DNA of 64,000 nt from a virus (taxonomy: Duplodnaviria; Heunggongvirae; Uroviricota; Caudoviricetes): IMG/VR virus record IMGVR_UViG_3300006143_000002, one strand, 5' to 3'. The position numbers were made by a program, and so were the translations under genes. Below, piece by piece: positions 4,368 through 59,159 of this stretch. Numbering within the stretch: the first letter of the stretch is position 1; each line of letters opens with the position of its first letter. The notes under the pieces were generated by a model. It saw only the letters and a program-made list of their open reading frames with translations. It was not told the origin of the DNA and did not search any database.

Positions 4368-4389
4368 CCTCATTAATATTTTACCAAAA
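4368..4389 (-). promoter_or_regulatory. conserved late-gene motif TTTTGGTAAAATATTAATGAGG
   Basis: Follows a terminator hairpin, ~40 nt upstream of the AGGAGG-ATG of the 851-aa tail-fibre gene. Confidence 0.45.
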
Positions 4390-4420
4390 TAAATAAGGGC
4401 TTATTTGCCCTTATTCAAAT
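4388..4420 (-). terminator. rho-independent terminator
   Basis: AAGGGCAAATAAGCCCTT hairpin plus a T-tract, after the stop of the 4411..4875 gene. Confidence 0.5.
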
Positions 4421-4875
4421 CTTATTTTTAAATCTTCTATTACTGTTCCTATTAAATAATTATTTGTTATTGCAGAATTAGTTACTTGAGAACCATTTGC
4501 ATAGTACACTGGTATTTCAGAAATGAAATTAAACTTTGCAAGTATTGTATGATTATTCATTTTATGTGCAGTATAATCTGAAAATGTAGATTCTTTTAGA
4601 ATAGAATGATTAGCACCTCCGTATGCAGTTTCAAATATATAACCACCTAAAGAATGTCTAATACTTCCACCAAATTTTTCTATAATTATATTATTTATAT
4701 TATACATACTTTTATCTACAACAATAAATATATGTATTGACTTTCTCAAAGATGTAACATATCCTGAAACAAAATAACTATCTGAAATCAAATAGTCATT
4801 TGGTTTATAATATAAATCGTCAATTAACTTATTATATTTTTCTTCTAAATTATTGTTTTTACAATTTGGTATCAT
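4411..4875 (-). CDS. small tail-associated protein, MIPxCK paralogue 1
   Basis: 154 aa, N-terminus MIPNCK shared with the two downstream ORFs, otherwise divergent. Confidence 0.45.
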   Translation of the reverse strand: MIPNCKNNNLEEKYNKLIDDLYYKPNDYLISDSYFVSGYVTSLRKSIHIFIVVDKSMYNINNIIIEKFGGSIRHSLGGYIFETAYGGANHSILKESTFSDYTAHKMNNHTILAKFNFISEIPVYYANGSQVTNSAITNNYLIGTVIEDLKIRFE

Positions 4876-4891
4876 AATTATATATTCCTCC

Positions 4892-5344
4892 TTATTTCCA
4901 TTTTCCTATTGCCATATATCCGATGGCACAACTTACATATTCGCTTAAAGGACCATTTCTTTGTACTACAACTCTTCCTGGATTTTCTGGTGTACTTCTA
5001 AATTGTGGTAAGTATTGTGTTATATATGTTAAATCAGATGATGGATTATAATCAAAATTATATATATTCCAAAATATTTGTGGTCTATCAAATACATCTA
5101 TATCACTTTTAAAGGGTACTATAAAATTCTTGAATCCTATTGACATACTTCTATACCCCACATTAGTTACCATATCTGTTGTAATCCACCCATTCCATTT
5201 ACAATTTATAATTAAATCTCCATTATCATATTTTCTAGCTCTTTGTTTTTCAATTAAATCTTTACCATTAGAATCAACTTCTGTCCACTCTTTTACTATT
5301 TCTTCATAAGAATTGCTATCACCTATCTTACAAAATGGTATCAT
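4892..5344 (-). CDS. small tail-associated protein, MIPxCK paralogue 2
   Basis: 150 aa, N-terminus MIPFCK, RBS GGAGG upstream. Confidence 0.45.
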   Translation of the reverse strand: MIPFCKIGDSNSYEEIVKEWTEVDSNGKDLIEKQRARKYDNGDLIINCKWNGWITTDMVTNVGYRSMSIGFKNFIVPFKSDIDVFDRPQIFWNIYNFDYNPSSDLTYITQYLPQFRSTPENPGRVVVQRNGPLSEYVSCAIGYMAIGKWK

Positions 5345-5376
5345 AGTTATTATAATCCTCCTCTGACTTGCTGTAT

Positions 5377-5817
5377 CTATAAAACTTTATATCCATAAAC
5401 AGCATGTATTTTATTTAGATTTAAGTCCTCATCTGTTATTTCTTGTCCTTCTCTTTTTCTTCTATTAAATAATATAGTTATTGTTTTTCCTTTTTCATCA
5501 TTCCATTTTCCTTGAATACAAGCAAAATATACATAATTACTTCTTAACTGTGTTACATTTAATACTACCTCATTATCTTGCCATAAAGAATTACTATGCC
5601 AACTAGGGTTATACCAAGTTGATACATTTATTGATTTTGATATATCCCCTACTACTGCTGCTAACCAATCAAATCTTATAAAATCATAATCAATCATAGG
5701 TTTATCTAATACAAATATACTTCCCTCTTGTGCAGGTGCAGCACCAGTAGAATATAATATTTCTTGAGTTATATTTCCCTTTGATAGATTTATATTCCTT
5801 TTACAAAATGGCATCAT
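5377..5817 (-). CDS. small tail-associated protein, MIPxCK paralogue 3
   Basis: 146 aa, N-terminus MMPFCK. Confidence 0.45.
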   Translation of the reverse strand: MMPFCKRNINLSKGNITQEILYSTGAAPAQEGSIFVLDKPMIDYDFIRFDWLAAVVGDISKSINVSTWYNPSWHSNSLWQDNEVVLNVTQLRSNYVYFACIQGKWNDEKGKTITILFNRRKREGQEITDEDLNLNKIHAVYGYKVL

Positions 5818-5829
5818 CTCAATAACCTC

Positions 5830-8028
5830 CTAAATTAATCTATTACATCTATCATAAACTATCCTCATATAATTTCTACCACTTCCATCACTTTTAGCTT
5901 CATTGCTGTCTGCTGTTACATATTCTATATATTGAGAAAAGTTCTCTACTATATTGTTTGTATGGTCAAACTTAACATCATTATTATCAAATGAACCATA
6001 ATCATTTACCTGTTTCTTTGTTGCTACTATTCTATCATACCAATTAGCATAAGGGTATTGTGTTCTTAATATAGTTGTTCCTCTTACTACATTATTTGGT
6101 TGATTATTCCATACTACACCATAAGTATTCCTTACTCTATTTATTAATGCTTTAGAATTATTATAATGTGTTGCATATATTATATCTCCTCTAACTGGTG
6201 TAAATGATGCTGGTGTTATTGTAAATGTTCTAACATTACTCCATTCACTCCAATTATTTTTATCACCTGTATATTTCTTTTTAACTCTTACTCTCAATCT
6301 ATATGTTGTTGCAATAGGAAACCCTGATGCTTTAAATGGTGCAAATATCATTTTCCTTTGATATGTTAAATTACTTGCTAATGCACTTGATATAGATGCT
6401 GCTTGTGTACCTGTTGCTGTCTTACCTGCTGGGTCAGATGTTAATCTGAATACTTTATTATTTACTTCTATTTCTATATCATCATAATGATATGTTTCTA
6501 ATTCAGAACCTTTATCTGGGTCTGCTGGTAATTGAAAACATACTCTAAATTTTGTATTTATCCAATCAGAACCTTCTATTGGATATGTTATTGATGGTTT
6601 TGCTAATCTAGCAGCCATTACAACAAAATCACATTGAGTAGGAGATGTGAAATACCAATAATTACTTGCATAAGCTGGATTTGCTAATTGAGCTTGGTCA
6701 TTTCCAAAATAAGGTGTTATATCTACTTTAGTATGTTGCATTTTTGGTATATCTGCTTTTGGTATTACAAAACTCTTACTTGTTGTATAATATGTTTTTA
6801 CTACTGTTCCTGCTTGATTATATAATCTTATTCTATATCCTTGTGTATAACCAGCATCTGCTGTTGTTGTATCATATACCCAACTTAAATATATTCCTGT
6901 CAAACTGGTATCATTTATTACTAAATCGTCTTTACCTATTCCACTTCCACTTGAGTTATTTTTTCTATATGAAAGATTACCACAAGTTACACCTTTTAAT
7001 GGTTTATATATTACTTTAAAGGTGCAAGTCTTTTCTGCACTTTCCCAATTTGCTGAGTTATTTCTTCTTTTAACATGCATTGTTATTATTTGATTATCAT
7101 AAGCTTTTGGTACAAATCCTCTTAAATTTGCTCCACTTAAAGTAAATGTAGAATTATTACCTGCTGTTCCTACTTGTGTCCAAGCATTTCCTATATTTAC
7201 ACCACTATATGAACAATGTGCTAATGTGTAGAATTGTTGTTCTAGTGCTGCCCAAGCTCTATCATTAATTCCTGATTGTGTAAATGTTATTGTTTGATTT
7301 TGTGCATTTACAGCAGTAGGATTTGCAGATACACCTGTTATAGTAGGTTCTTGATATGTATAAAATGTTTTATGTCCTGTTTGATATTCTGCATGACCAT
7401 CACTAAACCTTATCCTAACATTATAAGAACTTCCATGTCTAAACCCATCACCCCAAGTTGGATAGAAACTACCCCATAAAGAATCTCCCTTACCATTTCC
7501 AAAACCAAAATCTCTTACACCATCTACTCTTGCTATTACCCAACCAAGTCCATTAGTACCACCATTTATCTTATAGTTTACATCTACTTTATCTCTATCT
7601 ACTTTTACTATTTGAGTAGCACTCCATATATCATAGGCAGGAGGAGAATATGGGTCTGGTACATATAATGTTAAAGAGCCAATAGTTACAGGTCCTCTTA
7701 GATTGGCAGAACAATGTCTTCCATTTGTAATATCAGGACATTCCATAGTTACTGAAATTGTATGATTTCCAGCACCTACATTTAAAGAACCTGACATAGA
7801 TATTCCACCACCAACCATTGCAACTGTTGTACTGCCAACCTGGTTACCATCTATGTAAAGTCTTACTGTATCTGACATTGAAGAGTGACCTGATGCAGTT
7901 AATACTTGATTTCCACTGAAAGAAGCACTTATGGTTAAACCTGAATAATTAGCACTTAAAGTTCCAGATACTTTTCTTCTAGGTGCTCCACCAGTATGCC
8001 AACCATTATCACACCAAACATCTGCCAT
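5830..8028 (-). CDS. tail fibre / structural protein (Ig/FN3-like, S/T/G-rich)
   Basis: Start moved to the internal Met (MADVWCDNG). The ORF-track N-terminus overlaps a terminator and the late motif. RBS AAGGAG precedes the ATG. Confidence 0.5.
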   Translation of the reverse strand: MADVWCDNGWHTGGAPRRKVSGTLSANYSGLTISASFSGNQVLTASGHSSMSDTVRLYIDGNQVGSTTVAMVGGGISMSGSLNVGAGNHTISVTMECPDITNGRHCSANLRGPVTIGSLTLYVPDPYSPPAYDIWSATQIVKVDRDKVDVNYKINGGTNGLGWVIARVDGVRDFGFGNGKGDSLWGSFYPTWGDGFRHGSSYNVRIRFSDGHAEYQTGHKTFYTYQEPTITGVSANPTAVNAQNQTITFTQSGINDRAWAALEQQFYTLAHCSYSGVNIGNAWTQVGTAGNNSTFTLSGANLRGFVPKAYDNQIITMHVKRRNNSANWESAEKTCTFKVIYKPLKGVTCGNLSYRKNNSSGSGIGKDDLVINDTSLTGIYLSWVYDTTTADAGYTQGYRIRLYNQAGTVVKTYYTTSKSFVIPKADIPKMQHTKVDITPYFGNDQAQLANPAYASNYWYFTSPTQCDFVVMAARLAKPSITYPIEGSDWINTKFRVCFQLPADPDKGSELETYHYDDIEIEVNNKVFRLTSDPAGKTATGTQAASISSALASNLTYQRKMIFAPFKASGFPIATTYRLRVRVKKKYTGDKNNWSEWSNVRTFTITPASFTPVRGDIIYATHYNNSKALINRVRNTYGVVWNNQPNNVVRGTTILRTQYPYANWYDRIVATKKQVNDYGSFDNNDVKFDHTNNIVENFSQYIEYVTADSNEAKSDGSGRNYMRIVYDRCNRLI

Positions 8029-8058: not shown

Positions 8059-8080
8059 ACTCATTAATATTTTACCAAAA
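8059..8080 (-). promoter_or_regulatory. conserved late-gene motif
   Basis: TTTTTGGTAAAATATTAATGAG directly after the terminator of the upstream gene, 25 nt before the AAGGAG RBS. Confidence 0.45.
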
Positions 8081-8112
8081 ATAAAGACTACATTATTTGT
8101 AGTCTTTTTCAT
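8080..8112 (-). terminator. rho-independent terminator
   Basis: AAAGACTACAAATAATGTAGTCTTT plus ATTTTTGG, after the stop of the 8116..8868 gene. Confidence 0.5.
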
Positions 8113-8880: not shown

Positions 8881-11706
8881 CTACTTTGTTACTATCCATA
8901 TATCACCATTTGCTGCTCCTGATGGTGTACTACTCTGTATAAATACTTTTCTACCATTTACAGTCAGATTTGTTGTATTTGTAGTTGTAAAATATCCAGT
9001 ACTATATCTTGCAGCAGATGTTCCTATTGCATAAGTATTATTTGCAGATGGTGTTAATGCTCTTGAAGTAATTGTTCCTGTCATTGTTCCCCCAGAAATA
9101 GGTAAGGCTTCTGTTCCTGTACTTCTAGTAATAGCAAAATTAGATATATTACCTGTTCCGTCAAAAGTTACACTTGCTACTGCTGTTTTAGTAACTACTT
9201 TACTATTTTCTAATGTTGTTGAATATTCTCCTGTTGGTATAGAAATAGTTGTATTATCTGCTGCGTCTGCAATACTTCCATTTATTCCAACTAATTGTAT
9301 TCTATTGTTAGCATCTCTATATGCTATATAAAAAGGTCTGTCATTTTTATTATAATAGTTATTAGTTAATCTTTTCTTAAAATCATCTGTAAGCGTTCCA
9401 TTAAAATATAATATTTCATCAACTTTAGTATAATCAGGTTTAATTGTAACTGTATTCGTTCCACTATCATCTGCTATAGCAAAGTCAACAAAGTTCAAAT
9501 TCTTTCTAAATGCTACATTTGAATTATTGTTTTTTATATCTCTTCTTAATTTAGTTGCTATGTTATCATAACCATCTTGTGTAAATTCCATAGTCAAATC
9601 AAAATTCTTTGTACCATCTGTTTTTAGATTTGTACTTTTTGTTGCATTTATTGAAACATCTCCATCAGTACTTCCTACTGTAAATTCTTTTGTTAATTTA
9701 TCAACTGTTGCTCCTGCAATATGTCCTACTTTATCTGTAACTACTATTTTATTTTGTGGAATATCTGCACCTATTGTATAATCTATATAATCTTCTGATA
9801 TTGCTTTTACATCTGCAGGTGTTAATGTAATACTTTCTCCTGACTTACCATTTACAGATTTTACACTTACACCTAAATCAGCTCTATTCCAACTCGAATT
9901 ATAATAATAAATCCAATCTCCTACTTTATAATTCTTTCCACCAAAAGTATTTGCTGTTGTAACTAACCATGCCTGTGATTCTTTAGGTGTTGCTGATGGA
10001 GCTCCTCCACCATCCCAATTTCCCATTATCCTTACTGCTTTTGTCAATCCTTCTGGTAATTGAGATTCTGGAACTATTCCGTTTACTAAACTTGGTATTT
10101 TAACACCAATATCACTAGGAGTTAATACTGCTGCAGAACCGTCAAGTGTAGTTGTTATTTTAAAACTATTTTTAGATGTATCTAATTTTGCATTTCCTTT
10201 TACTGCACCTGTTATTTCAAATGCAATCTCATGGTCTAATTCTTTTGCATTATAAGCAGTTGTTGGTAAATTTCCATCTGTATCTAATTTCAATGCTTTT
10301 CCTGAAGTTGGTGTATCTGATACTATATTAGAAGCATCTGTTGACATTGTTAAAGATAATTTATCATAACCGAATAAAACTTCTCCAGTAATATCTCCTT
10401 CTAATTTAAGTTTAGTATCGTGGTCTAAATCACTTGCTGTTAAAGCATTTCCTGGCAAATTCTTATCACTATCTACAAGTAATGCTTTTCCTGGAGTTGG
10501 AGATGTTGTAAACATATCATTTAATAAATCTTCTGTTTCTTTCTTATTGTAGTAATTTGATAAATCTTTACCTGCAGCTCCTTCTAATGCATCTAATCTA
10601 TCTGTTATATCTTTATGCTTATGCTTATCTGGGTCTATTGTTAAAGGTATTGTTGTATTTGTATTATTGATAACTGTTCCTTGTCCTGTTGCTCCTCCTG
10701 TAAATGCTAATATAAAATTATCTGTACTCAATGTAAATTTCTTTTTAGATGCTGACCATATTATCTTTGCACCTTTATATTCCATATTAGTTAATTTATC
10801 AATCATTTCTTGTAAAGCATTTGATTTAGCAACTGTACTAAAATCTGATATATCTGCTGCTTTATGAACATGTGATTTTAGTGCAAAATCTGTAGCATGT
10901 AATCCATCTAATTTATCTACATTAAAATTAAATGTAGCTGGTAGTGTACCATCTGCTTGTCCTTGCACAAGTTTATTATATATTGCTTCTCCAGATAATT
11001 GTAAATTTTCTAATTGTAAATTTCCTTCATGCCATACTTTATATCTATGTGCATCTGTCTTATATGGATTATTATCTAATGAAGGTCGTTCATTATAATC
11101 TACAAATATTTCATTATTTAGTACATTCCATTCTCCTCTTATATATGCAGTAGATTGGTCATCTATATATAACTCACCTTCAGATGAAAAAGAACCATTT
11201 GGAAGTATTCTTACCCCTCCACCTAAATAAGAAGATAGCACAAGATTATCATGTTTATCACTTACATATAATCTACCTTTGATTATTCTGTTTGCATCTC
11301 TTATTACTACTGAACCATCTCGTAGTAATCCATTATTATCTACTATTGTCGGATTTTGGTCATCTAAATATACTTCTTCTATGAAATCATGGTCTGTTCT
11401 GTATGCACTTGGATACTTATTATCAGAATATATACAAATCCACCTATTCATCCATAGCCACAATGAATTACTCTCCCAACAATAATATGTAATACCCATT
11501 TCTGGTATTATATTATTTTGTAAATCATTAACTGTATCTACTCCAACATATCCATATAATGTTCTTTTTGAATCAGATTCATCATACCATAGTTGTAGTG
11601 TATCTAGGCACATATACATATTATACTTATTACATTTAGTTCCTAGCAAATCATAATTATTCAATCTAATTATTTTATTTATTGTTGGTGTTGTAACTGA
11701 TGCCAT
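8881..11706 (-). CDS. tail fibre protein
   Basis: 941 aa, T/S/G/N-rich repetitive beta composition typical of phage fibres. Late motif and RBS upstream. Confidence 0.55.
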   Translation of the reverse strand: MASVTTPTINKIIRLNNYDLLGTKCNKYNMYMCLDTLQLWYDESDSKRTLYGYVGVDTVNDLQNNIIPEMGITYYCWESNSLWLWMNRWICIYSDNKYPSAYRTDHDFIEEVYLDDQNPTIVDNNGLLRDGSVVIRDANRIIKGRLYVSDKHDNLVLSSYLGGGVRILPNGSFSSEGELYIDDQSTAYIRGEWNVLNNEIFVDYNERPSLDNNPYKTDAHRYKVWHEGNLQLENLQLSGEAIYNKLVQGQADGTLPATFNFNVDKLDGLHATDFALKSHVHKAADISDFSTVAKSNALQEMIDKLTNMEYKGAKIIWSASKKKFTLSTDNFILAFTGGATGQGTVINNTNTTIPLTIDPDKHKHKDITDRLDALEGAAGKDLSNYYNKKETEDLLNDMFTTSPTPGKALLVDSDKNLPGNALTASDLDHDTKLKLEGDITGEVLFGYDKLSLTMSTDASNIVSDTPTSGKALKLDTDGNLPTTAYNAKELDHEIAFEITGAVKGNAKLDTSKNSFKITTTLDGSAAVLTPSDIGVKIPSLVNGIVPESQLPEGLTKAVRIMGNWDGGGAPSATPKESQAWLVTTANTFGGKNYKVGDWIYYYNSSWNRADLGVSVKSVNGKSGESITLTPADVKAISEDYIDYTIGADIPQNKIVVTDKVGHIAGATVDKLTKEFTVGSTDGDVSINATKSTNLKTDGTKNFDLTMEFTQDGYDNIATKLRRDIKNNNSNVAFRKNLNFVDFAIADDSGTNTVTIKPDYTKVDEILYFNGTLTDDFKKRLTNNYYNKNDRPFYIAYRDANNRIQLVGINGSIADAADNTTISIPTGEYSTTLENSKVVTKTAVASVTFDGTGNISNFAITRSTGTEALPISGGTMTGTITSRALTPSANNTYAIGTSAARYSTGYFTTTNTTNLTVNGRKVFIQSSTPSGAANGDIWIVTK

Positions 11707-11755
11707 TCTACACTCTCCTTTACATAATAAAAAATATTAATGAGGTTTTACATTT

Positions 11756-11777
11756 CCTCATTAATATTTTACCAATT
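11756..11777 (-). promoter_or_regulatory. conserved late-gene motif, part of an inverted repeat
   Basis: TTGGTAAAATATTAATGAGG. A second AATATTAATGAGG copy at 11733..11745 on the other strand forms an inverted repeat ahead of the 941-aa fibre gene. Confidence 0.45.
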
Positions 11778-12605: not shown

Positions 12606-12620
12606 AATAGTATTCCTCCC

Positions 12621-12636
12621 CTTAAATATTTTTACC
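12621..12636 (-). promoter_or_regulatory. late-motif variant GGTAAAAATATTTAAGG
   Basis: Abuts the RBS GGGGAGG of the 11790..12605 gene. Confidence 0.3.
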
Positions 12637-12665: not shown

Positions 12666-12694
12666 ATTTTATCATAGATATTTTTATCTGTCAA
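12666..12694 (-). promoter_or_regulatory. sigma-A-type promoter TTGACA-N17-TAAAAT
   Basis: Reverse complement reads TTGACAGATAAAAATATCTATGATAAAAT, upstream of the 11790..12605 gene. Confidence 0.5.
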
Positions 12695-13303: not shown

Positions 13304-13332
13304 ATTATACAATAATTTTGCAATTATGTCAA
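13304..13332 (-). promoter_or_regulatory. consensus promoter TTGACA-N17-TATAAT, with a second TTGACA 9 nt upstream
   Basis: Reverse complement reads CACTTGACAAATAAATACTTGACATAATTGCAAAATTATTGTATAAT. Precedes the RBS AGGAGG of the 12747..13262 gene. Confidence 0.6.
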
Positions 13333-22803: not shown

Positions 22804-22978
22804 ATCTACACAACTCCTTTAAATATGTATCATAATCTATGCTTTTCAATCTATTCTTAATAAACTTATATCTATCTCTTTGTATATAATCTCCACAATT
22901 TCCATCCTTACTTTCAGTTACATTACAAAATGGAAATTTACTACAAGTTCTGCACTTATTACATATAAAATTACTCAT
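22796..22978 (-). CDS. small Cys-rich protein
   Basis: [13 protein letters not shown]. Confidence 0.3.
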
Positions 22979-32565: not shown

Positions 32566-32584
32566 CTCATTAATATTTTACTAA
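32565..32584 (-). promoter_or_regulatory. conserved late-gene motif (AGTAAAATATTAATGAGGTG)
   Basis: Here the GAGG of the motif doubles as the RBS, 9 nt before the ATG of the GIY-YIG gene. Confidence 0.4.
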
Positions 32585-49347: not shown

Positions 49348-49860
49348 TTAATCTGATATTATTTTTCCTTTTGTTATACTAGATGTTTTCAACATTATAT
49401 AAGCCTTCCACCATTTATTTAATTGAACATGATTGAACTTTCTTCTTATAAATTGTATCATTCCAGTTCCCTTTACAATATTATCCCCATTATCAATAAA
49501 TTTTAAGAATTTAGTTATTGGTGTTCTTGTGTTAGGAATTAAAACCCTATTATCAAAATATATCTCCCATGTTTCTTTTCTTTTTCTTATTTTAAAACAC
49601 TTTTTTATACTAGCCATAATCATATCTGTTGTAATATCTTTTGAACTTATCCATTCTATCCATCTAGCTCTTTTTATATAATTTAATCTAGCATCAATTC
49701 TTCTTTTGTTTGCATCTCTATTCATATAAATAAATATTTTCTCACACAACCAATTCAAAAAATCTCTAATTCTATCTCGTTCGTCATCTGTTAAATTTTC
49801 GAACTGCATTCTTACTAACATATCCCATCTCCTATCCGCTAAATGGACTGTCCTCATCAT
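49348..49860 (-). CDS. hypothetical basic protein
   Basis: 170 aa, K/R-rich. Confidence 0.3.
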   Translation of the reverse strand: MMRTVHLADRRWDMLVRMQFENLTDDERDRIRDFLNWLCEKIFIYMNRDANKRRIDARLNYIKRARWIEWISSKDITTDMIMASIKKCFKIRKRKETWEIYFDNRVLIPNTRTPITKFLKFIDNGDNIVKGTGMIQFIRRKFNHVQLNKWWKAYIMLKTSSITKGKIISD

Positions 49861-50437
49861 TAATAAATGTATAATTATTTTCCCATTCTTTAAACTTCTC
49901 TGGTGTTGTATCTATTACTTCTGTATTAGTTGTATATAGTGAATTTTGTTCTTTAGATGTAACCTCACTTTTTTCTTGACTAACCTTTTCATTATTTACT
50001 AATGTATATTGATTTCTTTGTGGGAATTGGTCTAGTACTGGTGCTAAGGCTACTGTATAACTATCAGGATATTCTAAATTACTTCCTATTCTAGTTATAT
50101 CAAAAAGTCTAGGTCTGTCTGTACCTTTAATAGTTGCTAACATTATTCTGCACCCAACCATTAAATTTGGAGTGTCAAATGGTATATGTGCAATTATTGG
50201 CAATGTATCTCCTAATTCAGATAACCATCCATAAGTATTTAATGTTTCTATTGTAGGATTTTCATTTAGTATTATATTCATTCTAATAGGTTGAGAATAT
50301 TTGAAATTCTTTTCGGAATGTATTGTATATTCTTTATCTGTAACCCATTGATAAGCACAACTTATACCAACTAACTTACACATTTCCTTAAAGTATCTTC
50401 TTTGTAATAGTGCTTCATTTCTAATAAGCATTCCCAT
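49832..50437 (-). CDS. hypothetical protein
   Basis: 201 aa. The late motif abuts the RBS upstream. Confidence 0.35.
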   Translation of the reverse strand: MGMLIRNEALLQRRYFKEMCKLVGISCAYQWVTDKEYTIHSEKNFKYSQPIRMNIILNENPTIETLNTYGWLSELGDTLPIIAHIPFDTPNLMVGCRIMLATIKGTDRPRLFDITRIGSNLEYPDSYTVALAPVLDQFPQRNQYTLVNNEKVSQEKSEVTSKEQNSLYTTNTEVIDTTPEKFKEWENNYTFINDEDSPFSG

Positions 50438-50453: not shown

Positions 50454-50474
50454 CATCATTAATATTTTACCGAA
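50454..50474 (-). promoter_or_regulatory. conserved late-gene motif
   Basis: TCGGTAAAATATTAATGATGGAGGTG after two hairpins, and abutting the RBS of the 49832..50437 gene. Confidence 0.45.
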
Positions 50475-50477: not shown

Positions 50478-50520
50478 TAATAGGGTGTATTATATACACC
50501 CTGTTTTAAGTGCAATTTAA
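50478..50520 (-). terminator. tandem hairpins (terminator-like)
   Basis: GTGCAAATATTACACTTTAAATTGCAC and AGGGTGTATATAATACACCCT followed by ATTATTATT. Confidence 0.4.
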
Positions 50521-50540: not shown

Positions 50541-52655
50541 TTATATAATAATCATACCATCTCTATTTCCCCATATCTCATTTATATCTGGTTCTTTTTT
50601 AACTGGTTGATTTACTACTTCTGTTTTTAACTTTTGCATCTCTTCACTTATCATAGTATTTATATCTTCGTCTTTATCTTTATTATTTCCTTGAGATGTA
50701 TCTGCTAAATGTACTACACCTCTTGTATCTACTGTAAACCCAAATCTTTTATTTATTGCATTTACATTTGATAAATCTCTTATAAATGTATTTCCTGTTC
50801 CATCTTTAGTTAATATTTTCTGGTCTAGATAATCTAATTCATCTAAATTTACAGATAGTACAGCATTATATACAGCTCCACCTAAACTATCTGCAATATC
50901 CTTACCCACTGATTTTATCATCTCACCATTTACCATTTTAACAGATTGCTTAGGATGGTCTACTTTACCAGTACTTTCGTTCTTCTCTAATGATGTTAAT
51001 TCTCTTTGTAATTCATACAAATCTAGCAAATATAGTCTTTTTTCGATTAATGTATTTCTAAACGATGTATATCCAACACATTCTTTTTTCTTTGTATCTA
51101 CAATATCCATAGATACTTCTTTTACTTCAAATCCATCTAATTTTAAACTCTGTAATAACATTAATGATTGGTAACCATCACATGATACCCCAGCAATATT
51201 CCAACCTAAATCATATTTTAAATAATGTATGAAATCTTTTACTTTAATCATTGAAAGCTCGTCATTAGGAGGGCATTTTAATCCTACACTAAATACATGC
51301 CTGAATACCATCTCTTTCATAGTATTAACAGCACCTTCATCGCTAAATCTTTCTTGATTTTTATATCCTAATACTGCAACTGCACTTATACCTGTCATAT
51401 CCCCAGATTTTGATAAGTCACAATGCACATATATTTTCTTAGTATATAATAATTCAGGTACTACTTCTGGCATAAAGAAATCTTTTATTTTAATATTATC
51501 CTTTAAACCTGTTTTGACTATTTCTTGTTTGAATGGATTTATTCCATCTCCTAAACAAGGTTCTATTATTCTATGTGTTATATATTTGTAGCTACTTTGT
51601 ACTGCAATACCACAAGTATCTATTAATGTTCTGTTCAAATCCATTTCAAATCTATGTAACATCTCTAAAGGTATATCTATTACTTCATAACCTTGTTTTT
51701 CTGCCTCTTTTATCTGTTCACTTGTAACATCTAAAGACATTATATAGCTTTCTAATGTATCATTACCAACTGCTAACTTAAACCACTCACCAGAGAATTT
51801 AGATGCAGGTAATACTTCCCATTGCTTGTATCTACTTACATGCATTCCTGGTTGCCCTTCATTATCTTTAATAAATGATTCTAAAACTGCATTTGTAGAC
51901 TTTGCTGAGGATATTAGATACATTCTACCTTGAATACGTCCAGCAGATAAGAAACGAGATGATAAACGAAGATATAACTGATTATATATTGCCATCATTC
52001 CTGTTTGTAGATATTCAACATTATCATTACTTCCAAATGACATCTCATCCATGGCTGCGAACATAACTGCAACAGATAAAGCATGTTCCTCTGTTGAACC
52101 AATATCTAATTTTATATCCTTATTTGGCTGATATACTAAATTTGTTTTTCCTGATATAGTTCCTCTTTCTCTAAACCACGGAGACATCTGTAATGCTTTT
52201 TGAAATTTACCCCACATTGTTTTTTCTGCAAGTTTTAAATTAAGGTTAAAAAATAAGAACCAAATAGTTTCATTTGCACCTAAATAAAATCTATTAGGAT
52301 TTTTTAAACACATTAATTTATATAACTCATAACATAATGAATATGTAGCAACTGTTGATTTACCTGTTCCTGTACTTCCTGTTATAGCCCATTGGTCTAT
52401 AAAATTTGCTGGATTATGTACATATTTTAATTCTTTTAACCATGTTTCATATATATCCTTACCACCATTTGTATAAGGTCCTAATAAGTCATCTCTTGAT
52501 AAAAATGTCCATAAGTCAACAGGTATTTCTTCATAATCTGCTAAATTTATTGCATCATACATTTCAGATGTACCTGTTTCTGATATATCATTTAGTATTG
52601 ATTTAACTGCTTCTAATTCATCTGGTGTTAATGATGAAAATTGTTCTTCTAACAT
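50541..52655 (-). CDS. terL: terminase large subunit
   Basis: Walker A GSTGTGKST, Walker B MFAAMDEMSF, C-terminal RNase-H-like nuclease motif YVHCDLSKSGDMTGISAV. 704 aa. Late motif and RBS upstream. Confidence 0.7.
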   Translation of the reverse strand: MLEEQFSSLTPDELEAVKSILNDISETGTSEMYDAINLADYEEIPVDLWTFLSRDDLLGPYTNGGKDIYETWLKELKYVHNPANFIDQWAITGSTGTGKSTVATYSLCYELYKLMCLKNPNRFYLGANETIWFLFFNLNLKLAEKTMWGKFQKALQMSPWFRERGTISGKTNLVYQPNKDIKLDIGSTEEHALSVAVMFAAMDEMSFGSNDNVEYLQTGMMAIYNQLYLRLSSRFLSAGRIQGRMYLISSAKSTNAVLESFIKDNEGQPGMHVSRYKQWEVLPASKFSGEWFKLAVGNDTLESYIMSLDVTSEQIKEAEKQGYEVIDIPLEMLHRFEMDLNRTLIDTCGIAVQSSYKYITHRIIEPCLGDGINPFKQEIVKTGLKDNIKIKDFFMPEVVPELLYTKKIYVHCDLSKSGDMTGISAVAVLGYKNQERFSDEGAVNTMKEMVFRHVFSVGLKCPPNDELSMIKVKDFIHYLKYDLGWNIAGVSCDGYQSLMLLQSLKLDGFEVKEVSMDIVDTKKKECVGYTSFRNTLIEKRLYLLDLYELQRELTSLEKNESTGKVDHPKQSVKMVNGEMIKSVGKDIADSLGGAVYNAVLSVNLDELDYLDQKILTKDGTGNTFIRDLSNVNAINKRFGFTVDTRGVVHLADTSQGNNKDKDEDINTMISEEMQKLKTEVVNQPVKKEPDINEIWGNRDGMIII

Positions 52656-52668: not shown

Positions 52669-52689
52669 CCCTATTAATATTTTACCAAA
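52669..52689 (-). promoter_or_regulatory. conserved late-gene motif upstream of terL
   Basis: TTTTGGTAAAATATTAATAGGGAGGTAGG directly after a terminator. Confidence 0.45.
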
Positions 52690-52730
52690 ATTAAAGAAGG
52701 GTATTAGTTACCCTTCTTTATTTGCAATAA
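52690..52730 (-). terminator. rho-independent terminator
   Basis: AAAGAAGGGTAACTAATACCCTTCTTT plus AATTTTGG. Confidence 0.5.
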
Positions 52731-53114: not shown

Positions 53115-55634
53115 TTATATATCCCATCTTATTGGAATTAAAAATTCTTGTAATTCTGCTTGATGTCCATCTAACATATAATCTATGAAGTCACCTGCAT
53201 CATAATATGAATATGCATCATCAAAGTCCTCATAATCATCACCAGTAAATTCATTTACACCTAATTCAATTAGCTTATTATAAATTCCCTCAACATCTCC
53301 ATTAAATGTATATAATGCCATTCTATGAGTACCATCATGATGTATTAAATTTATTGATAGACTTTCGTCATCACTTGTTTCAAACTCTATTATATCATAA
53401 TCTGCAACTAATGATTTAAAATCGTCCATTCCTCTTAATACTTTTCCTGCATTACCAGTTCCTCTCCAAGTTTGTGCTGTACCTAACATTATAACTAAAT
53501 CATTATCATCTAATTGTCTTTCTATCATAGGTAGTATATTCTCGTTCCAATCTTCTGATATTGCTTCATTATCATTTTCATTGTACATTTCTAAATAGTC
53601 TTGAATTAAGCCATCATAAATATTGTCCATCTCTTCTTGGTTATTTGGGTCTATTCCTAAATTTTCTGCTTCTTCTTGTGCTTCTGCATTTACATCATGA
53701 AACTCCGCTAACCACTCTTTAAAGTCAGGGTCATTCTGGTCAACATACTCACTTTCAGAACTCCATACTTTTGTTCCTTCAACTATCTTTTTACTTTCTG
53801 TTTCTTTTCTTCTCTGAATTTCATTATCAACATCCATATATAACTGGTCTAAATAATCAGCTACTTCTGTATTATCTTCTGTTCCTTCTCTTTTATTAAT
53901 TATATCTGTCATATATGCATCTAAATCTTCTGTTGACATATCTTTATAATTTGGTTCTTCTAAATTTTCTGTTATTTTCTTATTTTCTTCATATTCTTTT
54001 CTATATTCACCTGCCACATCTTCTAGTATATTTATTGTTTCTTTAAATCTATTCTCAAAATCGAAATCAGTATTTTTAATATATTCTACTAAACCTTTTG
54101 AACCACCTTTTATATTTAATGCTGGTATTAAGTATCCTATATTTCCCATTATTTTTGATTTATTAGCAGTTATTAAATCTTCATCATTATCTTTTATTGC
54201 ATCTTGTAATTCTTCTAAATAAATATCTAAATTTTGTAATCTATTATTTATTCTTCTGTCTGCCTCATTTCCATATAAGTCTTTAGATAAGTCACCTTCA
54301 ACTTTTTTACTCTCTTCAAGTTCTTCATTATACCAACTACCATCACATGTTATTTGTTGACTTTCACCTGTTTCAGATGATGTTACTGTCCATCCTATAT
54401 TTCTTGTCAAAACACCATCATCTGTAAATCTTGAAGGATTCAAACCTGCATCTTCAAGTGCTTGTTCTATTTCATAAAATATACCTTTATCATAGGTATC
54501 TCCTTCTGTCAATTTTTTACTTTCTTCAAATTCTTCTTCGTCATCATACTCATATAATTCATCATCTTCTACATAACTTGTATCTACTTTACTTAACACT
54601 GTAACAAAGTTATCAGCCCAACTAAATGCACTATCAGCTTTATAATCATTAAATAGTTCATCTATTGCTTCTTCAATAGTATTATTATCTTCTATTAGAT
54701 TTAAAATATTAGATATAGTTAAATCCATATATGAATTTAGATGATGAGATTTATCAGAATTATTTAAAATATCAACAGCTTTCTTTGGAAAATAGAAACC
54801 ATCAACTAATGTTTTATTATCTCCTTCATCTAACATATCTTTTAAATCTTTGAAAGCATCTCTAGCCTCTTGTGGTATATTTTTCTTTACTCTTTCACTA
54901 TAATCTTTTGCTAATGATTTTTCATTTTCTACATAGTCACCATAAGCATCTTCTTGTAGTTTCTTTCCTTCTATTTGTTTACTTTCTTTTCTCAATGGAT
55001 TTTCCTCCTCATCTTCAACCATTTCAGGTTCTTCTAAACTTTCTTGATTTTCTATATCTTCTGGTTCTTCAAGATTTTCTTCGTGTTCTATATTATCCTG
55101 TACTTCTTCTTTATCTGTCACAGCATTTGTATTTTCAACTCTACCATTCACAACAAAACTATCTGGTACTTTACAACATATAGGGCATGTATCTTCTCCA
55201 CTATCTAATAATGTATCATTTACAAATGTTCCTCCACATATAGGGCATGATAAAATATAATCTCCCTCATATTTATCTGTAAATGGTAATTCTCCTACAT
55301 CTGTATTATCAACTATACCCTGTAATTCGTCAGCTACTTCTTCAAATTCCTCACTTGTTATTTCAGGGTCTGTTACTACTAATATTCCATCTGCAATTCC
55401 ATCAACATTTTCCTCATCTTTCTCTGTTTCTGGTTTATTTGGGTCTTCTCTTGTTGGTGCAGATTTAATTATATTTGCAGTATCTATTGCTTCTTGGTTT
55501 GCATCTTTAACATTTTTATCTATTTTTATTTCTGTATCTTGTTTTCCTATTACATTATCTTCTTCTACTTTTTGTGTTTTTCCTAACATTTGAGCCATAA
55601 GTTCATGTAATGATTTTCCGTTTCCTACATCCAT
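53115..55634 (-). CDS. large acidic protein with a Zn ribbon
   Basis: Start set at MDVGNGK after RBS AGGAGG. The ORF-track extension overlaps the promoter. Contains CPICGG...CPICC and is very D/E-rich. Confidence 0.4.
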   Translation of the reverse strand: MDVGNGKSLHELMAQMLGKTQKVEEDNVIGKQDTEIKIDKNVKDANQEAIDTANIIKSAPTREDPNKPETEKDEENVDGIADGILVVTDPEITSEEFEEVADELQGIVDNTDVGELPFTDKYEGDYILSCPICGGTFVNDTLLDSGEDTCPICCKVPDSFVVNGRVENTNAVTDKEEVQDNIEHEENLEEPEDIENQESLEEPEMVEDEEENPLRKESKQIEGKKLQEDAYGDYVENEKSLAKDYSERVKKNIPQEARDAFKDLKDMLDEGDNKTLVDGFYFPKKAVDILNNSDKSHHLNSYMDLTISNILNLIEDNNTIEEAIDELFNDYKADSAFSWADNFVTVLSKVDTSYVEDDELYEYDDEEEFEESKKLTEGDTYDKGIFYEIEQALEDAGLNPSRFTDDGVLTRNIGWTVTSSETGESQQITCDGSWYNEELEESKKVEGDLSKDLYGNEADRRINNRLQNLDIYLEELQDAIKDNDEDLITANKSKIMGNIGYLIPALNIKGGSKGLVEYIKNTDFDFENRFKETINILEDVAGEYRKEYEENKKITENLEEPNYKDMSTEDLDAYMTDIINKREGTEDNTEVADYLDQLYMDVDNEIQRRKETESKKIVEGTKVWSSESEYVDQNDPDFKEWLAEFHDVNAEAQEEAENLGIDPNNQEEMDNIYDGLIQDYLEMYNENDNEAISEDWNENILPMIERQLDDNDLVIMLGTAQTWRGTGNAGKVLRGMDDFKSLVADYDIIEFETSDDESLSINLIHHDGTHRMALYTFNGDVEGIYNKLIELGVNEFTGDDYEDFDDAYSYYDAGDFIDYMLDGHQAELQEFLIPIRWDI

Positions 55635-55665: not shown

Positions 55666-55694
55666 ATTATAATACAAGTTTTAAAATATGTCAA
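55666..55694 (-). promoter_or_regulatory. consensus promoter (extended family)
   Basis: Reverse complement reads CTTGACATATTTTAAAACTTGTATTATAAT, between a late motif and the RBS of the 839-aa gene. Confidence 0.6.
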
Positions 55695-55721: not shown

Positions 55722-55742
55722 CATCATTAATATTTTACCAAT
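55722..55742 (-). promoter_or_regulatory. conserved late-gene motif
   Basis: TTATTGGTAAAATATTAATGATGA after a terminator. The consensus promoter at 55666..55694 follows. Confidence 0.45.
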
Positions 55743-55790
55743 AACAAAAGTGGTATTACAATCTTTTGAAAGTAATACCACAATTCTACA
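55743..55790 (-). terminator. rho-independent terminator
   Basis: GTGGTATTACTTTCAAAAGATTGTAATACCAC plus TTTTGTTATTGG. Confidence 0.5.
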
Positions 55791-55792: not shown

Positions 55793-56161
55793 TTATTTTG
55801 TTTCTTCTGTTTTAGCTTCTTCTAATTCAGGTGTTACTGGTGTGTACCAGCTTGCTTTAAATCCTTTTATTGCAGCTTCTATTAAAATTGTTGCTTCTGC
55901 TTCTGTAATAGTTATTCCTTTTTCTTCTAACCATTCAACAGATGTTTCAAGAGCTTTTTGTAATTTCTCTTTTCCATCTAATGCTTCATACACTTGTTGT
56001 ACATACTTAACTGTTGCTTCCACAACTTCTTTTTTAGTATCTGTATTGATTTTTTCTTCAAATTTATTTTTTATCTTTAATGCTACATAACCTGCAATAG
56101 CTGTAACTATTGTAACTACATAAGGCATTAAAGCTGTTATGATTTGATTTACTTGTTCCAT
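55793..56161 (-). CDS. holin-like single-TM protein
   Basis: N-terminal TM ITALMPYVVTIVTAIAGYVALKI with a charged C-terminus, two genes from the endolysin. Confidence 0.4.
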   Translation of the reverse strand: MEQVNQIITALMPYVVTIVTAIAGYVALKIKNKFEEKINTDTKKEVVEATVKYVQQVYEALDGKEKLQKALETSVEWLEEKGITITEAEATILIEAAIKGFKASWYTPVTPELEEAKTEETK

Positions 56162-56528: not shown

Positions 56529-57710
56529 TTATTGAACATCTTTCTTATATACCCAAGACATAATCTCTTTTAATAGTATTCCATCTGGATGTGTATTACC
56601 ACTTCCTACTTGCATTATAGTATAAGATTTTCCCTTGATTGAACTTGGAATTGTTTGTCCTGTACAATATCTACCTGCTGATGTCTTTAATGTTACTCTT
56701 TGTCCTTTACTAAATCCTGCAGGTGCTGATGGTTGAGGTGTTGGTGCTGAATTTCCACCTACAATACAACTATCATTTACCCATCCAATATTACCATTGT
56801 TTAATAGATATGGATTATTTGCACCATTTACTATTTTTGTAATAGTACCTGATTTAACAGCTGGATTTAATTTCTTTGTTGACATTGATGATGTGAATAC
56901 ACCATTTATTGAAACATTTTCACCTACATAGTGTCCTTTAGGTTGTGTTGGTGCAGATGGTGTTGAACTTCCACCAACTCTCTTTGTAAAATCTAAACAA
57001 ATCCACCCTGTTCCAGATTTTAGTCTACCCCAATTACCTTGAGTTTCAACTATTGTATAAACACCTCTATCTCTTATACAACCTGTTATCGCATTTCCTG
57101 TTCCAGCTCCACTCCTAATATTTAATGCTCTTGTTGTTATTTGTACTAAATAACTGTCACCATTTACTGCTGGAGCAGGAGCTGGTGTTGGTATAGGTGC
57201 AACAGATGTACCAGATAATTCTGCATACTTTTGTCTAACTATATTCCAAAATCTTTCTAGTCCCATATCAAGTGTTCTATGAGGACAATATTTACCACTT
57301 CTACTTTGATGTGTATTTACAACTTTTGTTCCTATTGTATCTACACCCCATCCATATTGAAGCATAATTCTTGCAGTTAATTCAGCAGCATTTCTTTCGG
57401 CTGCTTCAAATCTTGCTCCTCCTGATTTACTATAACATATTTCTATTCCTATTGTTTGTCTATTTCCAAATCCACCACCATCACCAGCATGCCAAGCATT
57501 TCTATTATGTTCTATTGCTTGAACAGCTCTTACATCATCTACTGCCCAGTGGTATGATACTTTATTATTATTTGTAATCATATATGATACTTCATTTTTT
57601 GCAGAAGCATCATTAGCTGTATTATGAATGGTGATTCCTTGTGGATTCATTTCATAGGGTGCTTTACACCAATATTTACTTGATGGGCATAACATTTTTA
57701 CTATTTCCAT
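56529..57710 (-). CDS. endolysin: N-acetylmuramoyl-L-alanine amidase (amidase_2/PGRP) with three SH3b repeats
   Basis: Amidase_2 motifs GITIHNTAND...YHWAVDD...AWHAGD...GIEI...CPH. Three SH3b-like repeats (SYLVQITTRALNIRSG..., HYVGENVSINGVF..., FSKGQRVTLKTSAGRY...). Start set at MEIVKM after RBS AGGAGG. Confidence 0.75.
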   Translation of the reverse strand: MEIVKMLCPSSKYWCKAPYEMNPQGITIHNTANDASAKNEVSYMITNNNKVSYHWAVDDVRAVQAIEHNRNAWHAGDGGGFGNRQTIGIEICYSKSGGARFEAAERNAAELTARIMLQYGWGVDTIGTKVVNTHQSRSGKYCPHRTLDMGLERFWNIVRQKYAELSGTSVAPIPTPAPAPAVNGDSYLVQITTRALNIRSGAGTGNAITGCIRDRGVYTIVETQGNWGRLKSGTGWICLDFTKRVGGSSTPSAPTQPKGHYVGENVSINGVFTSSMSTKKLNPAVKSGTITKIVNGANNPYLLNNGNIGWVNDSCIVGGNSAPTPQPSAPAGFSKGQRVTLKTSAGRYCTGQTIPSSIKGKSYTIMQVGSGNTHPDGILLKEIMSWVYKKDVQ

Positions 57711-58177: not shown

Positions 58178-58198
58178 TCTCATTAATATTTTACAGAA
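58178..58198 (-). promoter_or_regulatory. conserved late-gene motif
   Basis: TTCTGTAAAATATTAATGAGAT after a terminator, ahead of the 49-aa ORF. Confidence 0.4.
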
Positions 58199-58235
58199 CA
58201 AAAAAAGAAACTCCTATTTGAGTTTCTTTTAAATC
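58199..58235 (-). terminator. rho-independent terminator
   Basis: AAAAGAAACTCAAATAGGAGTTTCTTTTTTTG. Confidence 0.5.
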
Positions 58236-58435
58236 TCAATCTCTAATTATACTACGTCCCAATAATCTAATAATTCTCTTACTGTACTTATATTTTCTGT
58301 TGGTGGTATTTGCCCTAATGAATCTTCTATAACATTTAGTATATTAGATAATTCTAAATCCTCTGGTAAATTCATTAGAAAATCTACAAATTTTTCAAAT
58401 AATTGTTCTTCATTCATTGATATTACCTCCTTCCA

Positions 58436-59038
58436 TTAACCTAAAGTATATATAATAAATCTTTCTTCTGGGAATATTCTATAACAATTATCTTCTTCTC
58501 TTGCTATAAAATCTTCATCAGATTCTTCTTCATCTTTAAAATCGTCAAAGTCACCATAAGAACCATTTACTAATACATTATCTATTACTGCCATTGGATT
58601 ATAATTGATAAATCCTAATTGCTCATCAATAATTTCCATTAGTTCATCCCATACTAAATCTGGTACTTCTCCCCATGATTCTTTTACCCATCCTGCTCTT
58701 GCATCTAGAGCACTTTTATAAACTTCTGGTGCATTATGGAATATTTCTTCCCATTCTCCCTCATCTAAATAATTTGTGTATCCATTTCCATTCCATTCTT
58801 CTGCCATTTCATAAATATTGCTATTTTCAGTAATATATGTGTCTACTACTTCAAATACTATTTCTCTTATTTCATCATAATCACCATTTGTATAACCAAA
58901 ATTTTCTAAATCTTCAGATGATATAAATGTATCAGTAAATTCATCTGTTGCATCATCCACATCTCTGTATCTCATATCATCATCTAACTCACACCAATTT
59001 TGTATTAAATCTCTTAATTCTTGTTCTTTCTTTTCCAT
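58436..59038 (-). CDS. acidic hypothetical protein
   Basis: 200 aa, D/E/W-rich. Late motif and consensus promoter upstream. Confidence 0.35.
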   Translation of the reverse strand: MEKKEQELRDLIQNWCELDDDMRYRDVDDATDEFTDTFISSEDLENFGYTNGDYDEIREIVFEVVDTYITENSNIYEMAEEWNGNGYTNYLDEGEWEEIFHNAPEVYKSALDARAGWVKESWGEVPDLVWDELMEIIDEQLGFINYNPMAVIDNVLVNGSYGDFDDFKDEEESDEDFIAREEDNCYRIFPEERFIIYTLG

Positions 59039-59072
59039 ATTAAATCCTCCAATTCAATTTTAATCTATACTT

Positions 59073-59101
59073 ATAATACTATAAGTTTTAAAATATGTCA
59101 A
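59073..59101 (-). promoter_or_regulatory. promoter TTGACA-N17-TATTAT (extended family)
   Basis: Reverse complement reads CTTGACATATTTTAAAACTTATAGTATTAT. Confidence 0.55.
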
Positions 59102-59138
59102 GCATTTTTTAAAATTTTTAAAATTTCCTAAACTTTTT

Positions 59139-59159
59139 CATCATTAATATTTTACAGAA
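59139..59159 (-). promoter_or_regulatory. conserved late-gene motif
   Basis: TTCTGTAAAATATTAATGATGA, followed by the consensus promoter at 59073..59101. Confidence 0.4.

Follow-up and report, generated by a model that had tools for sequence, protein, structure and literature searches.

The window, the whole 64,000-nt stretch of DNA that was analysed, belongs to an uncultivated gut/rumen phage of ~217 kb with a genome of 27% GC. It contains nine exact copies of a 13-nt core, GTAAAATATTAAT, which is designated motif B. All nine lie between genes on the minus (coding) strand, and because only 7.9% of the window is intergenic, 9/9 intergenic copies on one strand have P ~2e-13. Table 1 lists them with the adjacent hairpins and the early promoters (motif A) in tandem with two of them.

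Table 1. Copies of motif B in the window, with adjacent hairpins and tandem early promoters
Feature	Coordinates	Strand	Remarks
Motif B copy 1	59143..59155	-	predicted +1 = G 59142
Early sigmaA-type promoter (motif A), TTGACA-17-TATTAT	59073..59101	-	tandem, downstream of copy 1
Motif B copy 2	58182..58194	-	predicted +1 = G 58181; head of lysis cassette
Terminator-like hairpin with T-run	58203..58230	-	directly upstream of copy 2
Motif B copy 3	55726..55738	-	predicted +1 = G 55725
Terminator-like hairpin	55750..55781	-	upstream of copy 3
Early sigmaA-type promoter (motif A), 12/12 consensus	55666..55694	-	tandem, downstream of copy 3
Motif B copy 4	52673..52685	-	predicted +1 = A 52672
Terminator hairpin (12 bp) with T-run	52692..52720	-	abuts copy 4
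Motif B copy 5	50458..50470	-	predicted +1 = G 50457; operon 49832-50437 through 45352-47307
Terminator hairpin	50482..50502	-	upstream of copy 5
Motif B copy 6	32569..32581	-	predicted +1 = G 32568; GIY-YIG homing endonuclease gene 31672-32553
Motif B copy 7	11760..11772	-	predicted +1 = G 11759; 941-aa tail-fibre-like gene 8881-11706
15-bp hairpin	11731..11770	-	5' arm = copy 7 positions -11..+4
Motif B copy 8	8063..8075	-	predicted +1 = G 8062; 732-aa gene 5830-8028
Terminator hairpin	8083..8107	-	upstream of copy 8
Motif B copy 9	4372..4384	-	predicted +1 = G 4371; 851-aa dockerin-bearing fibre-like gene 1768-4323
Terminator hairpin with T-run	4390..4417	-	abuts copy 9

The lysis cassette behind copy 2 consists of small ORFs, an amidase endolysin (56529-57710) and a holin (55793-56161). 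Copy 4 is 17 nt ahead of the terminase large subunit gene (50541-52655), a position that is kept in all relatives examined. Copies 1 and 3 each precede a motif A promoter and an acidic protein gene, encoding 200 aa (58436-59038) and 839 aa (53115-55634), respectively. Because copy 1 and its motif A promoter are in tandem, the 200-aa protein gene has both promoter types. The earlier note had placed every copy 10-40 nt before an RBS. Measured to the start codon, the 13-mer is 15-53 nt ahead in seven copies and 91 nt (55726) and 104 nt (59143) ahead in the other two, with a complete sigmaA-type promoter between. At copy 6 the GAGGTG at +1..+6 is the endonuclease RBS (GAGGTG-N9-ATG), and the suggestion that GAGG sometimes doubles as the RBS holds for this site. 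The GIY-YIG gene is within an early region and splits the NAD-ligase gene.

The repeat described previously is real, with nine exact 13-mers instead of the ten copies claimed. The tenth, a variant assigned to position 12621 (12615..12636, minus strand, GGTAAAAATATTTAAGG), was rejected as a copy of motif B: an indel is needed to align it, and its gene is served by a TTGACA-17-TAAAAT promoter of its own (12694-12666), placed after a terminator. When a 22-mer is searched with up to 3 mismatches, 7 occurrences are found in the window versus 0.01 expected. The window has zero copies of the 13-mer with 1 mismatch, and 2-mismatch matches are at chance level. The core of the proposed conserved element was retained and its length was not; the unit is the 13-mer rather than the 22-mer since the flanks vary in relatives, where conservation does not extend to TTTTGG and what remains of GAGG is a preference for purines.

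A terminator hairpin had been reported ahead of each copy. Clear hairpins with a T-run were found at 6/9 copies, the hairpin at 32569 is weak, and none precedes 59143 or 11760. Across the clade, a terminator-like hairpin is present ≤60 nt upstream of 30/62 copies versus 7/93 control regions (Fisher P 6e-9), and it ends 5-13 nt ahead of the 13-mer. The inverted repeat noticed near 11733..11777 also proved real, as a 15-bp stem, though its second arm is a partial copy and not a second site. This 3' arm is an inverted partial motif without the GT, and a T-run is next to it. The hairpin looks like a terminator for read-through RNA, and a transcript beginning at the predicted +1 could not form it. 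It is conserved in three related genomes of 210-227 kb (L293-L295), contig 082442 and c169468. Apart from two special hairpin sites, no conserved RNA structure involving motif B was found.

Motif B in related phages

The clade is widespread, with phages of ~160-240 kb in rumen, termite and human gut samples, and most of its genes are without annotation. The terminase is at most 34% identical to that of any cultured phage, which places this phage far from all cultured ones, and a near-identity DNA search of the INPHARED phages gave no match. The 703-aa right-flank protein retrieved only its own contig, the PNK/ligase query had no match in IMG/VR, and a motif A scan of metagenome contigs returned short contigs only.

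Motif counts were made on ~396 kb of related phage DNA, which contains 62 non-redundant exact sites. 61/62 are intergenic, compared with 18.5% intergenic sequence (P ~1e-43), and 53/62 are co-directional with the next gene. The sole exact copy outside intergenic DNA is inside a 1-kb ORF (c144093). The earlier note had proposed a search of related phages, and had named abundance in coding regions as a sign of chance. The 13-mer was found across the clade, mostly intergenic and directed toward genes, and its near absence from coding sequence is against chance. Variants with 1 mismatch are intergenic in 23/26 cases, their changes recurring at -13, -2 and -1, and 2-mismatch matches behave like chance; as exact patterns were used to retrieve the loci, some of the seeming invariance is ascertainment, which the mismatch scan corrects only within the DNA so retrieved. 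Upstream of the terminase gene the 13-mer is kept in relatives with 65-74% aa identity, despite diverged flanks. A 17-mer searched against 596 Gb of bacterial and archaeal genomes produced 71 scattered single matches, which is the chance rate, and was not enriched in any bacterial genome. A literature search for a 12-mer gave no relevant match.

Promoter geometry and gene classes

In the proposed geometry TAAAAT would be the -10 hexamer at -12..-7, the 13-mer would span -13..-1, and transcription would begin at the purine directly after it. TAAAAT is invariant, with T-12, A-11 and T-7, and a purine is found 7 nt past its last base, at the predicted +1, in 62/62 sites; C never occurs at +1..+4. 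A -35 hexamer is lacking, information being ≤0.3 bit at every position from -45 to -14 of the 62 non-redundant sites. An extended -10 was rejected because TG at -15/-14 is not conserved: TG-N-TAAAAT occurs in 5/9 window copies and in a minority clade-wide, and G-13 abuts the hexamer. TATTAAT was rejected as the -10 hexamer since it would put the start within or beyond the SD at the copies whose GAGGTG directly adjoins the 13-mer. Several copies have this abutting GAGGTG with the ATG 11-16 nt off, and so the start site cannot be further downstream. Motif B was also rejected as a symmetric operator, since its orientation follows gene direction, and as a nut/put/Q-type antitermination site, since it lies after terminators and not before them.

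The genes behind motif B encode terminase, portal, head protease, major capsid, adaptor/sheath/tube, baseplate wedge, tail fibre and endolysin/holin proteins. Besides these virion, packaging and lysis operons, one homing endonuclease gene is also behind it. Replication and RNA-repair genes have motif A, a perfect TTGACA-N17-TATAAT, instead of motif B. At divergent junctions motifs B and A stand back to back and point outward, each toward the genes on its own side, which leaves motif B as the only conserved element able to start those operons.

These observations suggest a division of labor in which the early genes (RNA repair, tRNA, replication) would be transcribed by host sigmaA RNA polymerase from motif A promoters. 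A terminator ahead of each structural, packaging and lysis operon would insulate it, with transcription starting anew at a motif B promoter, probably late in infection, and genes that have both types of promoter would stay active throughout. The late promoter postulated in the earlier note, with a -10-like TAAAAT and no -35, has strong comparative support from orientation, intergenic placement, conservation, gene classes and divergent junctions. We consider it probable that GTAAAATATTAAT is the core of late-gene promoters in the ~217-kb phage and its clade, independent of a -35 and most likely read by a phage factor. Motif B would then be a simple, high-confidence separator of late and early transcription units in an uncultivated clade. 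The arrangement is a compact terminator-then-promoter unit, with a variant in which the putative promoter is inside the terminator hairpin, and both units could serve as genetic parts for AT-rich Firmicutes.

Candidate readers and rival readings

Diverged phages agree at practically every base from -13 to -1; these bases include G-13 and the "discriminator" ATTAAT, outside the sigmaA reading, and this points to a phage-encoded factor. Specificity most likely comes from a sigma-region-2-like or gp55-like protein or from a phage RNA polymerase. Like promoters of phage RNA polymerases, whether T7-like single-subunit or phiKZ/AR9-like multisubunit, motif B has 13 fixed, near-invariant nt that abut an R at the predicted +1. 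Pfam and PHROGs were searched with the whole window proteome and with ORFs of ≥60-100 aa from ~93 kb of sister contigs, and NCBIfam and a permissive Pfam scan were applied to 10 functionally unassigned early proteins. Over ~157 of ~217 kb these searches detected neither a sigma region 2 nor a gp55/gp33-like protein or RNA polymerase, and gp55, gp33 and the sliding clamp had no PHROG, Pfam or NCBIfam match there. Approximate sigmaA and gp55 queries matched only the sigma4 protein in phmmer. Neither split beta/beta' genes nor a DxDGD motif turned up in ~440 kb of clade DNA, nor any RNA_pol or beta/beta' family match in the clade DNA examined. The replisome consists of a family-A polymerase, DnaB and primase, with no clamp seen.

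It is possible, and we propose it tentatively, that the reader is a transcription protein of an unrecognised family, either a diverged sigma-region-2/gp55-like protein or an unconventional phage RNA polymerase, contacting every base from -13 to -1. If true, it would be encoded across a ~160-240 kb clade for which standard profile searches turn up neither a sigma factor nor a polymerase.

Unmodified or merely remodelled host sigmaA holoenzyme might read motif B as a -10-only promoter, with no phage specificity factor; late timing would then be due to the template, to copy number or to a phage protein that abolishes recognition of the -35. We regard this as unlikely. The extended -10 TG, normally required without a -35, is in a minority of copies only, sigmaA contacts leave the invariance of G-13 and -6..-1 unexplained, and no bacterial genome shows enrichment of the motif. 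What speaks for the host enzyme is that TAAAAT retains T-12, A-11 and T-7 with a purine start at the canonical distance, that the early promoters show phage dependence on sigmaA, and that ~157 kb yielded no phage sigma factor or RNA polymerase. The introduction of the AR9 paper names phage proteins that redirect host holoenzyme (PMC5312081). A free sigma-region-4 protein, present in some clade members, could compete for the beta-flap or the -35, but it was not detected in motif-keeping relatives. The same HNH/NUMOD4-sigma-region-4 protein (22971-23867) was the candidate reader of the earlier note, a role that now seems highly improbable. Its region 4 is a genuine RpoD-type one that could dock on RNA polymerase, all three homologues have another residue in place of the HNH His, suggesting domestication as a DNA-binding protein, and the gene is syntenic in one relative (49% identity). 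However, the ORF has sigma region 3.2-4 only and is without region 2, the part that reads the -10, and its recognition helix, ERIRQIEA, is the RpoD helix for TTGACA and not for motif B. The architecture forms only three clusters in a 5.8-billion-protein search, none recorded on a contig >148 kb, and a search of IMG/VR for relatives gave no match. L293-L295 keep motif B and the hairpin at the orthologous tail-fibre site; the gene is missing from their syntenic slot and was not found within ±10 kb of the PNK/RNA-ligase gene. To judge from these sequences, the proposal is largely refuted by the apparent absence of the protein from motif-bearing relatives.

The fallback readings of anti-termination, RNA processing and translational enhancement are disfavoured by the position after terminators, the variable distance to genes and the divergent junctions. 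An element acting in RNA, such as an endonuclease processing site, a 5'-stabiliser or a translational enhancer in polycistronic transcripts, is very unlikely. It would suit an AU-rich motif that separates co-directional genes and in many copies has an SD-like GAGG behind it, which is the RBS at one copy. Against it, half of the copies are just past intrinsic terminators, so little RNA would arrive, and divergent junctions offer no upstream co-directional gene or transcript. The distance to the start codon ranges from 11 to >200 nt and is not constrained, a whole promoter intervenes at two copies, and conserved RNA structure with the motif is confined to the two special hairpin sites. That motif B is non-functional, as a chance AT-rich repeat, a mobile-element footprint or a homing-endonuclease target, is next to incredible. 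The low GC content, the chance frequency of loose (2-mismatch) versions and the homing endonuclease behind one copy fit such a reading, but the exact 13-mer is far above expectation and on one strand only, its flanks are not repeated, so that it is not a MITE, and relatives have it at the same positions although their flanks have diverged. As far as sequence comparison can tell, this reading is already refuted by the statistics, including the P value for intergenic placement, and by orthologous conservation.

Comparison with known promoter systems

The preferred reading, a late promoter read by a phage factor, can be compared with several systems. Canonical sigmaA/sigma70 promoters resemble motif B in TAAAAT, with T-12, A-11 and T-7, and in the purine start 7 nt downstream; they differ in that motif B has no -35 and no consistent extended -10 and is invariant outside the sigmaA contacts. 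The phage's own sigmaA sites are the motif A early promoters. The gp36 protein of phiEco32 is a phage sigma factor whose promoters are -10-only. Motif B shares with gp36 promoters, and with the -35-independent promoters of remodelled host polymerase, the concept of a switch to -35-less middle or late promoters. It differs from them in lacking a conserved TG extension and in being conserved through the discriminator to -1, and no sigma-family gene has been detected here so far (~157 of ~217 kb). The introduction of PMC5312081 outlines the strategies by which phages pass from early promoters of the -35/-10 kind to middle or late ones that have no -35.

AR9 has a phage RNA polymerase that recognises invariant AT-rich 13-mers (PMC5312081). 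The early consensus is AAATATATATTAT-N6-G+1 and is very sensitive to single changes, and expression is continuous for genes that carry an early as well as a late promoter (PMC5312081). Motif B is like these AR9/phiKZ-type promoters in its invariant AT-rich 13 nt, purine start and dual-promoter genes, and early and late promoters also face apart at divergent junctions in AR9 (PMC5312081). In AR9, however, the AT-rich 13-mer is the early promoter, used by the virion polymerase, and the late motif is AACA-N6-TA/G (PMC5312081). The early promoters here are textbook host sigmaA sites, and the split beta/beta' genes and DxDGD were not found in ~440 kb of clade DNA.

With T4 late promoters, motif B shares a short conserved AT-rich -10-region element, no -35, a location ahead of virion, lysis and homing-endonuclease genes, and a start a few nt downstream, which for motif B is predicted. 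T4 late promoters likewise precede homing-endonuclease genes. In T4 the phage sigma factor gp55, together with gp33 and the gp45 clamp, reads TATAAATA at -13..-6, a short element of the -10 region alone that is highly conserved (PMC1524935). Motif B does not match this consensus; it has 13 fixed nt reaching to -1, whereas the T4 element has 8 nt of other sequence ending at -6. Over ~157 of ~217 kb, homologues of gp55, gp33 and the clamp went undetected here, and with a PolA-type replisome and no clamp seen, clamp-coupled activation is unlikely. The kind of element is familiar, and motif B is a further example of it.

Distribution of motif B in the window and its relatives

The repeated element described in the earlier note as a 22-mer gave 7 matches at ≤3 mismatches in the window, against 0.01 expected. 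Its 13-nt core, GTAAAATATTAAT (motif B), has nine exact copies in the window. Every copy is intergenic and lies on the minus strand, a placement with P ~2e-13 given that 7.9% of the window is intergenic. Scanning the window for 1-mismatch copies produced none, and 2-mismatch matches were at chance level. The putative variant copy at 12621 was rejected because it aligns only through an indel and adjoins a separate TTGACA-17-TAAAAT promoter. The window, which corresponds to IMG/VR contig 3300006139_000370, is AT-rich (~27% GC), and its genes are all carried by the minus strand with strong AGGAGG ribosome-binding sites.

No near match was found among deposited phages searched with window DNA, and the window terminase is at most ~34% identical to those of cultured phages. 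Sister-sample contigs, 100% identical to the window where they overlap, were tiled to ~143 kb, and a separate 13.6-kb replication contig was assigned to the same phage. A 99% identical PNK/RNA-ligase was found on a 217,435-bp ENA contig, which points to a genome of ~217 kb. Relatives (110–242 kb) came from rumen, termite and human-gut assemblies. In relatives whose terminases are 65–74% identical, the 13-mer, or GTAAAATATTAAC, lies directly upstream of the terminase gene. The TTTTGG and GAGG flanks diverge in these relatives, and the conserved unit is the 13-mer rather than the 22-mer.

The earlier note had suggested a motif search in related phages and took equal abundance of the motif in coding DNA as a sign of AT-rich chance occurrence. 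The clade scan covered ~396 kb of non-redundant DNA, 18.5% of it intergenic. Exact copies were intergenic in 61/62 cases (P ~1e-43), and 53 were co-directional with the next gene. 1-mismatch matches were intergenic in 23/26 cases, with recurrent changes at −13, −2 and −1, and 2-mismatch matches (18/96 intergenic) had a chance-like distribution. The mismatch scan only partly offsets bias, as loci were originally fetched with exact patterns. The 17-mer gave 71 scattered single matches among 596 Gb of bacterial and archaeal genome sequence, no more than the chance rate, so motif B does not represent a class of host promoter. A Bacteroidetes MAG contig (CAIYIS010000078.1) contains the 13-mer by coincidence, within an unrelated three-copy repeat (3237, 5014 and 6767; ~1.7 kb spacing) that has no relation to the phage clade.

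Proposed promoter anatomy and terminator coupling

With TAAAAT taken as the −10 hexamer (T−12, A−11, T−7), the 13-mer would span exactly −13 to −1 and the next base would be +1. That base is a purine in 62/62 non-redundant sites (G 52, A 10). A weaker A-G-G comes next, and C never occurs at +1 to +4. Positions −45 to −14 carry no information except T-richness from terminator tails. In several copies the Shine-Dalgarno sequence (GAGGTG) adjoins the 13-mer, with the ATG 11–16 nt away. The predicted start therefore cannot lie further downstream, which ruled out TATTAAT as the hexamer. The extended −10 class was rejected because TG at −15/−14 is not conserved.

A terminator-like hairpin lies ≤60 nt upstream of 30/62 motif B sites versus 7/93 control intergenic regions (P 6e-9), usually stopping 5–13 nt short of the 13-mer. 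The earlier note placed every copy immediately after such a hairpin. Among the window copies, a clear hairpin plus T-run precedes six and a weak hairpin one; the other two have none. What had been read as an inverted repeat of two copies is a 15-bp hairpin, in which motif positions −11 to +4 pair with a partial inverted copy downstream. A predicted promoter inside a terminator-like hairpin (14–15 bp) was found at two loci, this one and sister contig 6144_7 near 3860. The design is kept, with loop changes, in three relatives (L293–L295) and in a relative's contig, 082442; in another, c169468, it is one base pair shorter. A transcript from +1 would contain just 4 nt of the 5′ arm, and the hairpin would fold only in read-through RNA from upstream.

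Genes downstream of motifs B and A

The window copies of motif B lie ahead of the lysis cassette (endolysin, holin), the gene for the large terminase subunit, genes for three large fibre-like and two acidic proteins, and a GIY-YIG homing endonuclease gene. On sister contigs it heads portal, head protease plus major capsid, an adaptor/sheath/tube operon, baseplate wedge, tail fibre and holin genes. RNA-repair, tRNA and replication genes instead have the early motif A upstream, AAAAAnnC-TTGACA-TATTTTAAAACTTATAG-TATAAT, a perfect σA consensus. The exact motif A 29-mer is common to close relatives only. At divergent junctions B and A stand back to back, each directed at its own genes, and both occur in tandem before two window genes. 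In AR9, genes with both early and late promoters are expressed continuously (PMC5312081).

Two further TTGACA-type promoters belong to genes directly upstream of the late tail-fibre cluster, and may belong to a distinct (middle?) promoter class or mark a regulator. The 171-aa product is of equal length in L293–L295. The DNA ligase gene is unsplit in L288, another contig, and in L293; in L295 it is split elsewhere by a SegE-like GIY-YIG gene. The dockerin of the fibre-like protein is a hint that the host environment is cellulosome-bearing or associated with fibre. Very acidic large proteins, including four of 1252, 934, 509 and 449 aa on sister contig 6143_508, share repeated E-[ST]-K-K-[ILV]-x-E-G motifs, at which the prohead protease could cut internal or ejected virion proteins.

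Coordinates of window features
Feature	Coordinates	Strand	Remarks
Fibre-like late protein	1768-4323	−	851 aa; type I dockerin domain
Hairpin-embedded motif B	11731-11770	−	
TTGACA-type promoter	12666-12694	−	271-aa gene; spacer unlike motif A
TTGACA-type promoter	13317-13332	−	171-aa Zn-ribbon/HTH gene; spacer unlike motif A
RNA-repair/tRNA island (large)	13000-45000	−	two Thg1-like genes, RlaP, PNK-phosphatase-RNA ligase, HAD_SAK_2, nucleotidyltransferase/phosphoesterase, YqeY, 8 tRNA genes (anticodon loop unusual in one)
Motif A early promoters (n=8; first base of TTGACA)	20875, 24947, 29656, 34585, 43681, 45264, 55694, 59101	−	perfect σA consensus; near-invariant 17-nt spacer TATTTTAAAACTTATAG; A-tract upstream
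HNH-σ4 protein	22971-23867	−	
NAD-dependent DNA ligase	29705-32581	−	interrupted by GIY-YIG homing endonuclease gene with own motif B copy
Very acidic large protein	53115-55634	−	
81-aa protein	59716-59961	−	Pfam Tad8 (type II Thoeris inhibitor), E 2.5e-15

Mechanism and candidate readers

Motif B is best read as a −35-independent late promoter. The late promoter with a −10-like TAAAAT and no −35 proposed in the earlier note fits the 62-site anatomy, the late-gene association and the conservation across the clade. An action at the RNA level, its alternative, fits poorly because the motif comes after terminators, is present at divergent junctions without an upstream co-directional gene, and lies from 11 to >200 nt from the start codon. 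The fixed G−13 and the discriminator bases are not explained by σA contacts, from which we infer that a phage-specified factor would read the late promoter. Searches covering ~157 of the ~217 kb turned up neither a σ region 2 nor gp55/gp33 nor an RNA polymerase.

The candidate factor named in the earlier note, the HNH-σ4 protein, joins an I-HmuI-like NUMOD4/HNH_3 N-terminus to an RpoD-type region 3.2–4. It lacks σ region 2 and carries the recognition helix ERIRQIEA, the same as the RpoD helix that reads TTGACA. The architecture occurs in only three clusters among 5.8 billion proteins, and all three known homologues have another residue in place of the catalytic HNH histidine (VVDF-KDGD in the window version). 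One relative carries the gene in the syntenic position. Neither that slot nor the ±10 kb examined around the PNK/RNA-ligase gene contains it in L293–L295; these relatives retain motif B, hairpin included, so the protein was rejected as an obligatory reader. The protein may have arisen by domestication of a homing endonuclease, and we speculate that it might act at −35 elements (TTGACA sites) or at the β-flap.

Motif B is a real repeat, well supported as a late-promoter motif, and an element of a known kind. Its nearest precedents are the gp55 system of T4 late transcription (PMC1524935) and the 13-mer read by the AR9 polymerase (PMC5312081).
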